DNA of 48,564 nucleotides, taken from Candidatus Cerribacteria bacterium 'Amazon FNV 2010 28 9'. GTDB lineage: Bacteria; Patescibacteriota; Microgenomatia; UBA1400; UBA12028. Shown here in pieces: positions 45,915 to 47,661 of this stretch. The stretch is from assembly GCA_003176165.1 (NCBI GenBank), contig PSRQ01000022.1:1-48564 (forward strand). Direction: 5' to 3'. The stretch's first letter is position 1. Each line of letters opens with the position of its first letter. Both the position numbers and the translations under genes were made by a program. Under the pieces are notes generated by a model that worked only from the letters and a program-made list of their open reading frames with translations, had not been told where the DNA came from and made no database searches.

Positions 45915-47243
45915 ATGTCCACATTAAAGTTGCCGCCAAACAATATTCAGGCCGAAGAAAGTGTCTTGGGTGCGATGTTTTTGGATAAAGAAGCGGTGAT
46001 CAATGTCATCGACATGCTTCATCCGGAATATTTTTACAAAGATATTCATCAAGATATTTTTGCGGCGATGTTGGCACTGTACACACAACGAGAACCGATT
46101 GATTTGGTGACTGTAGCGGCGGAGCTCAAAAAAAAGAAGTTGCTCAAAGAGGTGGGGGGTACAGAATACTTGGCGAAGCTTGCCAACAATGTCCCTACGT
46201 CTTCCCACATCAAACAGTACGCAAAAATCGTTAAAGACTTGTATACAAAACGTGAGCTCATTGGGTTGGCTTCGCAACTTGGTGAACTGGCATTTGATGA
46301 AGGGAAGCTCACTGAAGAAATTTTGGACAAAGCCGAAGGGTCGATCTTTGCTCTGTCGCAAGGCCATGTGGAGCGTTCTTTTGTGCATATTAAAGATGCG
46401 CTTGCAGAAAGTTTTGATCGCCTCGATGAGTTGCAACGGAGTAGTGGAGGGATGCGTGGTGTCCCAACTGGGTTTGCTGACTTGGATGCCACACTCTCCG
46501 GTATGCAAAACTCCAACCTTCTGATTCTCGCCGCGCGCCCAGGTGTAGGTAAAACTGCGTTTTCGCTCAATATTGCACAACAAGCGTCCGTCTTGTACAA
46601 GAAAAAAATTGGATATTTTTCACTCGAAATGAGTAAAGAGGAGTTGGTTGATCGTCTCCTCGTAGGGCAGGCAGATATCGATGCGTGGAAATTGAAAACC
46701 GGCCGCTTGGGTGAAGACGATCTCGCCAAACTTTCTGATGCGATGGGTGTCCTTGCCGATGCCAATATTTTTATCGATGACACACCTGGAATTACCGTGC
46801 TTGAGATGCGCACCAAAGCGCGTCGACTCATGGCTGAAAAAGGTATCGACATGATCATTGTCGATTACTTGCAGCTTATGCACGGGTCGGGGTTGTACAA
46901 AGACAACCGTGTTCAAGAAGTGTCAGAAATTTCACAAGGATTAAAAAATTTAGCACGTGAGTTAAAAGTTCCCGTGCTATCACTTGCTCAGCTTTCACGT
47001 GCTGTCGAGAGTAGAGGGACCAAACAACCACAGCTTTCGGACCTTCGTGAATCCGGAAGTATTGAGCAGGATGCTGACGTGGTCATGTTCTTATATCGTG
47101 AAGATGATGATGATCGTGAAGCCGTAAAGCTTTCAATCGCTAAACATCGCAATGGTCCCTTGCGTCAAATTGATCTCTTCTTTAAGGGTGATCGCATCCG
47201 TTTTTATGGAATGGATCGAAGACAACCACCAGTTAGTGGTTAG
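45915..47243 (+). CDS. dnaB: replicative DNA helicase
   Basis: PPNNIQAEESVLGA N-terminus, ARPGVGKT Walker A and IVDYLQLM. ATG 45915 is preferred because the track start reads through the repeat. Confidence 0.92.
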   Translation: MSTLKLPPNNIQAEESVLGAMFLDKEAVINVIDMLHPEYFYKDIHQDIFAAMLALYTQREPIDLVTVAAELKKKKLLKEVGGTEYLAKLANNVPTSSHIKQYAKIVKDLYTKRELIGLASQLGELAFDEGKLTEEILDKAEGSIFALSQGHVERSFVHIKDALAESFDRLDELQRSSGGMRGVPTGFADLDATLSGMQNSNLLILAARPGVGKTAFSLNIAQQASVLYKKKIGYFSLEMSKEELVDRLLVGQADIDAWKLKTGRLGEDDLAKLSDAMGVLADANIFIDDTPGITVLEMRTKARRLMAEKGIDMIIVDYLQLMHGSGLYKDNRVQEVSEISQGLKNLARELKVPVLSLAQLSRAVESRGTKQPQLSDLRESGSIEQDADVVMFLYREDDDDREAVKLSIAKHRNGPLRQIDLFFKGDRIRFYGMDRRQPPVSG

Positions 47244-47264
47244 GGAACAGGGTACTGGGAACAG
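47243..47264. repeat. left heptamer arm of the four-helix-bundle cassette
   Basis: GGGAACA GGGTACT GGGAACA G. GGGTACTGGGAAC is complementary to 47648-47660 (12/13). Confidence 0.75.
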
Positions 47265-47267
47265 AAA

Positions 47268-47627
47268 TTAGGAAGTTGATTTTAATTTCTTTATCAGTGC
47301 ATTAAGCATCTTCTGTATGGTGGTAATGTTATCCAGAAGCTCATTCATTTTTTGTTGGTCAATATATCTAAGATTCTTTGCGATAATGAGTTGAGTCTCG
47401 ACTTCCGAACTAGAACCATACGCTGTAAATAAGAATTGTAAATATTCTTTTCTTGTTTGTCTTTGGTATCCTTCAGCAATGTTAGAAGCGATAGAAACCG
47501 CAGCTCTCTGCATCTGATTGGAAAGACCGTATGTTTCAAATTTTGGAAACGTTTGTGTAATTTTGTAGAGGTTAGTAACAAATTCAACCGATTTTTGCCA
47601 AACAATTAATTCTTTGTATGATTGCAT
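47268..47627 (-). CDS. four-helix-bundle protein (23S rRNA intervening-sequence protein family)
   Basis: YKELIVWQKS, MQRAAVSIASNIAEGY and GSSSEVETQL are typical of the family. ATG 47627 is preferred to the GTG at 47636. Confidence 0.8.
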   Translation of the reverse strand: MQSYKELIVWQKSVEFVTNLYKITQTFPKFETYGLSNQMQRAAVSIASNIAEGYQRQTRKEYLQFLFTAYGSSSEVETQLIIAKNLRYIDQQKMNELLDNITTIQKMLNALIKKLKSTS

Positions 47628-47635
47628 ACTCTGCA

Positions 47636-47661
47636 CCCTGAACCCAGTTCCCTGTACCCTC
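47636..47661. repeat. right heptamer arm of the four-helix-bundle cassette
   Basis: CCCTGAA CCCAGTT CCCTGTA CCCTC, the reverse complement of GGGNACN-type heptamers. Confidence 0.75.

Follow-up and report, generated by a model that had tools for sequence, protein, structure and literature searches.

In the genome of Candidatus Cerribacteria bacterium 'Amazon FNV 2010 28 9' (GCA_003176165.1), a small gene directly downstream of dnaB encodes a protein of the four-helix-bundle family of 23S rRNA intervening sequences (IVSs) and is bracketed by inverted arrays of tandem heptamers, hereafter its arms. We analysed the locus in contig PSRQ01000022.1, positions 1–48,564 (the window, meaning this whole stretch), which is contig C51 of a 1.06-Mb assembly of 65 contigs that is 95% complete (G000). 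The gene together with its arms, at 47243–47660 (arms extending to about 47231–47666), is probably one inserted unit: a form of the open reading frame (ORF)-bearing IVS element that resides outside rRNA, with a putative terminal stem and a protein that would act on the heptamer arrays. The locus has the following features.

45843–47243, plus strand: dnaB, replicative helicase, host gene (PF03796, E 1e-98; PF00772)
47231–47265, no strand: 3' arm, on the stop-codon side of the cassette gene, core 47242–47265 (TRF, repeat search, fold)
47268–47627, minus strand: four-helix-bundle protein gene, 119 aa (profile matches to PF05635, TIGR02436 and NF008911)
47630–47666, no strand: 5' arm, on the start-codon side, CCC-type heptamers on the plus strand (TRF, repeat search, fold)
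47661–47975, minus strand: small membrane-protein gene, 104 aa, host gene, without family match, kept beside dnaB in relatives
47981–48021, no strand: third array, GGGNNNN-type, upstream of the membrane gene and inverted relative to 47630–47666

Insertion at the dnaB site

The dnaB site is empty in three relatives (G010, G011 and G012), where dnaB is immediately followed by the 3' terminus of this membrane gene and neither a bundle gene nor a heptamer is present. Read by hand, the two host genes overlap tail to tail in G012, and G010 gave the same reading. A preliminary description of the window had taken the locus for a discrete cassette, a gene with inverted heptamer arms, and had proposed a comparison of synteny at dnaB in relatives; the empty sites agree with that view.

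A filled site was found in G004, a member of the same genus as G011, which carries an armed bundle gene at the dnaB site in the same orientation as G000. The G004 arms consist of AGTGNTT-type heptamers, and the encoded protein shares only 55% identity with the window copy. The C-terminus of DnaB reads (G/S)IAPx(M/T) before the stop in G004, G010, G011 and G012 and RRQPPVSG before the stop in G000, and this difference indicates that the last codons and the stop of dnaB in G000 are arm sequence (GTTAGTG GTTAGGG). The last DnaB residues (PPVSG) and the TAG stop lie within the outer heptamers of the 3' arm. Because G004 retains the native DnaB end, the insertion points in the two genomes differ, and two independent insertions are the simpler reading. 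On the opposite side, the stop codon of the membrane gene falls within an arm heptamer in both filled genomes; in the window it is the CTA (TAG on the minus strand) at 47661–47663, contained in the 5' arm. Arm sequence in G000 therefore supplies C-terminal codons and TAG stops for both convergent host genes.

Two further observations concern dnaB in other relatives. Just downstream of dnaB in G001 (L036), a different cargo of about 430 nt lies on the opposite strand between GGGAGGG/CCCTCCC hairpins, and visual inspection suggests an endonuclease of the DUF559 type; small selfish elements thus seem to insert repeatedly at the end of dnaB. In G003, G006 and G007, the DnaB match is divided, its two parts separated by about 1.3 kb inside a single open frame of 867–888 aa, which suggests an intein.

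Duplicates of the complete unit in G039

The entire unit has been copied in the relative G039. Across 431 nt, the copies it carries on contigs C11 and C2 show 97.4% identity, and a third, located between trxA and trxB, shows 81–83%. Identity starts and stops inside the flanking arrays, which in this subfamily consist of 9-mers, and the outer flanks are unrelated, demonstrating that arm, gene and arm are inserted as a unit. One arm word is common to all three copies, although they occupy unrelated loci. At the C2 site, G022, G051 and G015 have neither a cassette nor a hairpin, and in G039 the zinc-ribbon host gene there has had its C-terminus replaced by cassette-encoded residues.

The dN/dS ratio between the G039 paralogues is 0.08, indicating that the protein is maintained by purifying selection. 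Between the 97%-identical copies (L141 and L142), repeat units have been lost concordantly on both arms. A 7-nt tandem duplication (TTGGTGC) in the coding region and a 2-nt indel further distinguish the two and leave L142 frameshifted. Across genomes, the arm word follows protein similarity (L012/L014/L020, L009/L032 and L003/L004), demonstrating that arm word and protein diverge together.

The cassette gene and its arms in the window

The cassette gene runs on the minus strand from its ATG at 47627–47625 to its stop at 47268–47270, and an alternative GTG start at 47636 lies within the 5' arm. Profile scores make its membership of the PF05635/TIGR02436 four-helix-bundle family clear: PF05635 matched with E 7e-41 and 139.1 bits (cut-off 33.8), TIGR02436 with E 8e-40 and 135.5 bits (cut-off 24) and NF008911 with 151.9 bits (cut-off 137). 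The preliminary assignment to the 23S-IVS protein family is thereby confirmed. By sequence, the protein matches two solved pentamers, the bundle XCC0516 (PDB 2GSC, E 8.5e-21) and 2RLD, and it is predicted to adopt the same four-helix-bundle pentamer fold.

Both arms have the sequences initially reported. On the dnaB side, the TAG stop (47241–47243) is followed by GGGAACA GGGTACT GGGAACA G; the opposite side reads CACCCTG AACCCAG TTCCCTG TACCCTC TAACTCC. With its outer units, the 3' arm reads (A)GTTAGT GGTTAGG GAACAGG GTACTGG GAACAG on the plus strand. TRF placed period-7 arrays at 47242–47264 and 47627–47660 and a third at 47987–48020, whose units are AAGGGAA AAGGGTA AAGGGTC AAGGGGA. The repeat search paired the two arms over 23 nt at 83% complementarity (47242–47264 with 47638–47660), with an outer extension of 12 nt at 83% (47231–47242 with 47655–47666), and in a shifted register over 14 nt at 93% (47249–47262 with 47647–47660); this last pair is the register-shifted 12/13 complementarity described earlier. 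G-quadruplex-forming heptamers of the GGGNATC type are characterised by four or more successive G3 tracts with 4-nt spacing; of such G tracts, the 3' arm (47231–47265) contains three of GGG and one of GG, the array at 47981–48021 contains four, and the arms of the other three cassettes in G000 contain none.

Other copies within the genome

G000 contains four PF05635 genes, each lying between inverted heptamer arrays that form complementary arms, a property that the preliminary description had proposed to check in the other copies. The heptamer word differs in each copy (GGGNACN, AAGAGNT, AAATTTA and AAATTCA). The window copy is 18–40% identical to the others, and the most alike are those on contigs C4 and C31 (68–71%). 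A flank-complementarity score of at least 12 was reached by 8 of 1007 crude genes, namely by 3/3 scorable PF05635 genes and 5/1004 others (Fisher p 3e-7). Lag-7 arrays number 115 in G000, against 19, 54, 30, 32 and 5 at lags 5, 6, 8, 9 and 10. The arms around the PF05635 genes of this genome are beyond chance. The bacterial 23S rRNA model had no match in this 95% complete assembly, so rRNA-borne copies could not be sought in it.

The copy on C4 (6510–6914; L003 1447–1851) lies between a nusA-like gene and infB in an open frame that lacks ATG, GTG and TTG starts. Next to an A-run there is an ATG, shifted by one base from this frame; an unusual start codon, a frameshift that has turned the copy into a pseudogene, or an error in the assembly could each account for this. 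A tRNA-Ile gene with anticodon TAT (L002 1271–1346, contig C23 of G000) was seen about 170 nt from an armed PF05635 copy.

Conservation of the arms across relatives and phyla

From its size and its relatives, G000 is taken to be a member of the Candidate Phyla Radiation (CPR). In related genomes of its order, 31 copies were assessed for lag-7 self-match in two 45-nt stretches, one preceding the ATG and one following the stop. Self-match was 0.48 upstream and 0.45 downstream, compared with 0.25–0.29 at other lags and 0.24 in the gene interior. Complementarity between the two arms of one copy had a median of 11, whereas arm pairs drawn across copies had a mean of 6.2 and a 99th percentile of 10.

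A second set comprised the 80 best matches to CPR-type copies (a query of 16 sequences against species genomes), of which 77 were usable; it covered Firmicutes, Bacteroidota, Acidobacteriota, Desulfobacterota, Proteobacteria, Nitrospirota, Planctomycetota, Actinobacteria, Chloroflexota and CPR. These 77 homologues showed a lag-7 peak of 0.41 (against about 0.27) and a lag-14 peak of 0.37. An array in at least one flank was present in 51/77 at lag 7, compared with 3, 1, 14 and 1 at lags 5, 6, 8 and 9, and own-arm complementarity exceeded the 95th percentile of mismatched arm pairs in 49/77. Armed copies also occur on plasmids: the copy of a Nostoc punctiforme plasmid has (CAGGAGT)n before the ATG and CTCCTGA after the stop, and a Riemerella plasmid copy is likewise armed. 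On plasmids alpha and gamma of Nostoc sp. PCC 7120 (L254 1849–1915, L255), an identical bundle protein (WP_010994075.1) is encoded beside a transposase gene in each case; these copies are half-armed, with a CTTCTGC/CCTCTGC array after the stop and none before the ATG.

Provision of host-gene ends by the arms is not confined to the window. Host ORFs of at least 100 codons read toward the cassette at 82 of 129 array-bearing sides, and the host stop falls within the array for 48 of these 82 ORFs (31 TAG, 9 TAA and 8 TGA). Across both arms, TAG occurs 326 times inward and 128 times outward (42:12 and 48:10 per locus), and the arms read inward contain G at 0.29 and C at 0.12. This skew accounts for the inward bias of TAG, for which a purine-rich, Shine–Dalgarno-like arm next to the ATG is a simpler explanation than selection for stop codons. 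A "stop adapter" that would provide stops in all three frames was considered as the cause of the period of 7 and rejected, as TAA and TGA have no inward bias.

Association between heptamer arrays and the gene family

Array density was surveyed in 17 genomes, comprising the whole of G000 and samples of about 67–100 kb from 16 relatives, almost all away from PF05635 genes. Seven genomes without PF05635 had 0–4 lag-7 arrays per 100 kb, and genomes with 1–10 copies had 2–26 (Mann–Whitney p 6e-4); density followed copy number across all 17 genomes (Spearman 0.93, p 8e-8). Within genus g5, G004 had 14 arrays per 100 kb, compared with 0 in G011 and 2 in G013. When the dispersed arrays of G000 were compared with the genome's own four cassette arms, they gave 13, 9, 2 and 0 hits (13/14 matches); 27 foreign cassette arms gave mostly 0, so that own arms had about 10 times more. 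Flanking DNA from 80 diverse genomes, 189 kb in total and over 250 nt distant from the gene, contained 22.7 lag-7 arrays per 100 kb, compared with 1.6–10.6 for other lags. A gene accompanied by a genome-dispersed repeat is the pattern of the repetitive extragenic palindromic (REP)/RAYT and Ssn/NTS systems, and by this analogy the bundle protein may act on the arrays.

Arrays in G000 also lie away from the gene family, flanking a murJ-like gene, ftsK and recR-hpf. In the window, dnaX is bracketed by inverted GAAAATT-type arrays at 40603–40636 and 42317–42346, and its flank-complementarity score of 24 ranks third among the 1007 crude genes. The preliminary description had linked these arms to those of the cassette. 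The strong inverted array pair is real; its heptamer word is different. We do not read dnaX as a cassette of the same kind because it is an essential gene, which cannot be mobile cargo, and because long-range array pairs outside PF05635 cassettes show no clear excess of the inverted over the direct arrangement (10 vs 7 arrays at 17/21 matches).

Gene-less close hairpins of the same words also occur in G000, for example at C12:12648/12704, C19:8128/8181 and C28:4610/4693. At G000 sites syntenic to the filled sites of relatives, heptamer hairpins are absent, and other palindromic repeats are found there. Four array pairs in G000 enclose 110–530 nt without an ORF (C15:10771–11323, C64:9111–9705, C19:20883–21098 and C59:107–287). 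No ORF of at least 60 aa, no decayed PF05635 gene (family hidden Markov model with --max, E up to 10) and no Rfam family or tRNA was detected inside these four pairs.

RNA folding, transcription and a possible mechanism

In the predicted RNA fold of 47232–47672 on the minus strand, an arm–arm stem of about 30 bp closes both the minimum-free-energy and the centroid structure (z -2.0). The order of units is mirrored between the arms beyond the unit-shuffled expectation at 42/51 loci (p 3e-6). No promoter-like site was found on the minus strand directly before the cassette gene, and the only such site on this strand, at 48091–48062, precedes the membrane gene, which makes co-transcription of the two genes likely. 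Judged from sequence, the membrane gene and the cassette gene are probably transcribed together. The genome encodes RNase III (rnc, C52:22072–22458).

By analogy with the rRNA-borne IVSs, a minus-strand transcript, probably begun upstream of the membrane gene, would fold so that its arms form a paired stem, about 30 bp long, around the ORF. This stem would be a substrate for the genome's RNase III, as in the IVS of Coxiella, and cleavage would free the cassette RNA from the host RNA, rendering the insertion harmless. The bundle protein may act on the heptamer arrays by binding them as DNA or RNA, following the logic of RAYT/REP and Ssn/NTS.

Alternative explanations

Several observations weigh against an inserted, RNA-processed unit whose protein acts on the arrays. 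The cassette junctions in G000 and G004, and those of the three G039 copies, show no target-site duplication, and profile scans found no transposase or nuclease domain in the cassette. The four G000 copies include no near-identical pair, so that no recent movement is seen in this genome. Relatives with an empty dnaB site lack heptamer arrays altogether, so it is conceivable that an array stood at the site before the gene. The cross-phylum set, chosen by similarity, favours homologues close to the CPR copies, and the inward bias of TAG is part of a general G-over-C skew, leaving selection for stop codons unproven. Selection on sense-RNA pairing, sought through an excess of G–U pairs, was not found: arm mismatches on the sense strand comprise 61 G–U and 60 A–C, and transversion mismatches occur at 217 of 1926 arm positions. 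Pairing of the sense RNA therefore gains no specific support from the mismatches, and a role at the DNA level fits them equally.

Such a role is the core of an account in which the arms are DNA-level terminal repeats only, iterons or terminal inverted repeats that are moved or maintained by an outside factor or by the bundle protein, with no part played by an RNA stem. Beyond the mismatch pattern, it would accommodate units built of a conserved core and variable positions, the concordant shift of array copy number on both arms of the 97%-identical copies, and a G-rich strand that points inward from both ends. We nevertheless consider it improbable, given that neither a transposase nor a target duplication accompanies the repeats, that the stem of the rRNA-borne relatives is demonstrably cut as RNA by RNase III, that mirrored unit order fits pairing or templated copying and that the predicted fold closes on the arms. 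It is also possible, though unlikely, that the heptamer hairpins are independent elements and that the gene alone moves into an existing loop, as it does with loops of rRNA helices, the arms being its target. The many gene-less hairpins of the same words in G000, the differing arms among copies of one genome and the ORF-less arm pairs without decayed gene remnants would all suit such a process, and the correlation of arrays with copy number is also expected if the gene needs hairpins in which to settle. Against it stand six empty sites at two loci, none of which has a hairpin, the G000 counterparts of filled sites, which lack a heptamer hairpin, the way the arm word tracks protein similarity between genomes, and the common arm word of the three G039 copies at unrelated loci.

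Two further explanations retain very little probability. The abundance of arrays in G000, including those at dnaX, the murJ-like gene, ftsK and recR-hpf, raises the prospect that an ordinary, vertically inherited gene happens to sit between two of them; the restriction of complementary flanks to all scorable PF05635 genes and a handful of others, the recurrence of the layout across phyla with unrelated words and the empty sites in relatives make such a coincidence very remote. We give practically no credence to the gene being the Avd accessory of a diversity-generating retroelement (DGR), or a remnant of one. The protein matched both Avd models weakly and below their cut-offs (PF22296, bAvd, 39.1 bits against 40; NF033474, 38.6 against 80), the IVS-protein models score higher, RVT_1 has no match in the whole of G000, and no template/variable repeat pair was found; the identification was rejected because of the sub-threshold scores and the missing reverse transcriptase. 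The preliminary description had noted a relation to Avd and had seen no reverse transcriptase in the window; the latter observation extends to the whole assembly, and of the former the homology stands and the link to DGRs does not.

Relation to known systems

The inserted-unit reading places the cassette closest to the ORF-bearing 23S rRNA IVSs of Coxiella and Leptospira. The S23p ORF of Coxiella sits inside a terminal stem of 28 bp, within which RNase III cuts, three GACAGAT heptamers precede the ATG, and the ORF is reported to be decaying and untranslated (PMC4990558). This layout matches that of the window, as the preliminary description had suggested. The two share the protein family, an ORF in the loop of a terminal inverted-repeat stem, tandem heptamers directly before the ATG, a repeat number that varies between strains and a sporadic distribution, read in print as horizontal transfer; their sizes are similar, at 428–444 nt for the rRNA IVSs and 418 nt for the window cassette. 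Unlike the rRNA IVSs, the window cassette lies between two protein-coding genes rather than in an rRNA helix, and its arms encode host-gene ends and stop codons. Purifying selection acts on the protein in CPR relatives, in contrast to the Coxiella ORF. RNase III cutting has been demonstrated for the Coxiella IVS and would apply to the window cassette by analogy.

The arms also resemble dispersed heptamer repeats, which in Xanthomonas, Nostoc, Geobacter and the cyanobacterial short tandemly repeated repetitive (STRR) sequences are likewise tandem, degenerate, mostly intergenic, often of about four units and arranged in inverted pairs. The GGGNATC heptamers of Xanthomonas and Nostoc, with 70–75 convergent inverted pairs in Xanthomonas (PMC4692102), and the heptanucleotide families of Geobacter metallireducens (PMC2700814) have been viewed as G-quadruplex formers or regulator sites, with no associated protein named. 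GGG-type words are shared between these repeats and the window arms. Unlike the dispersed heptamers in print, the arrays studied here bracket a PF05635 gene and their density follows its copy number. Such a small gene framed by a genome-dispersed repeat, with gene and repeats present or absent together, recalls REP/RAYT and the Ssn GIY-YIG nucleases with their NTS/SRM repeats (PMC11893778); the bundle protein differs in having no recognised nuclease or transposase fold, and the repeats in being tandem heptamer arrays of variable word rather than a fixed palindrome. The protein is predicted to share with Avd of DGRs a homologous pentameric four-helix-bundle fold, one that binds nucleic acid; the reverse transcriptase and the template/variable repeats of DGRs are missing. 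Terminal inverted repeats are common to the cassette and to insertion sequences (ISs) and miniature inverted-repeat transposable elements, from which it differs in lacking a target-site duplication and a transposase domain. Near-identity at several loci, an IS-like trait, is represented by the one 97%-identical pair, found only in the relative G039.

We tentatively suggest a broader interpretation, in which PF05635 proteins and tandem heptamer arrays might form one unrecognised genetic system across Bacteria. Armed genes would be its autonomous elements, the thousands of gene-less arrays and hairpins its products or non-autonomous derivatives, rRNA IVSs the copies that landed in rRNA, and the pentamer the array-recognising factor. 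The derivatives would include cyanobacterial STRR sequences, the GGGAATC repeats of Xanthomonas, the Geobacter heptanucleotide elements and the CPR arrays. Both parts have already been described separately in Xanthomonas campestris (XCC0516 and GGGAATC arrays) and in Nostoc. A literature search for a printed link between the PF05635 family and heptamers returned the Coxiella paper only, where the heptamers are local, and it found no printed description of an ORF-bearing IVS class outside rRNA. The over-represented heptamer repeats of bacteria, described since 1990 with no protein attached, would gain an origin, and a testable hypothesis arises that the protein recognises its own flanking heptamer array. 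For genome annotation, the finding accounts for short inserts at the ends of genes by which host C-termini are rewritten, as in dnaB here.

G000 also contains two small GIY-YIG genes (C31:709–1005 and C52:4657–4956), each between palindromic repeats of the GTCATCCCGC / CCCGCGAAGGCGGGAAT type; the flank score of the C31 gene is 25. The two loci look like the nuclease-plus-repeat units of the Ssn type (PMC11893778), and would make up a second class of small armed genes in this genome.

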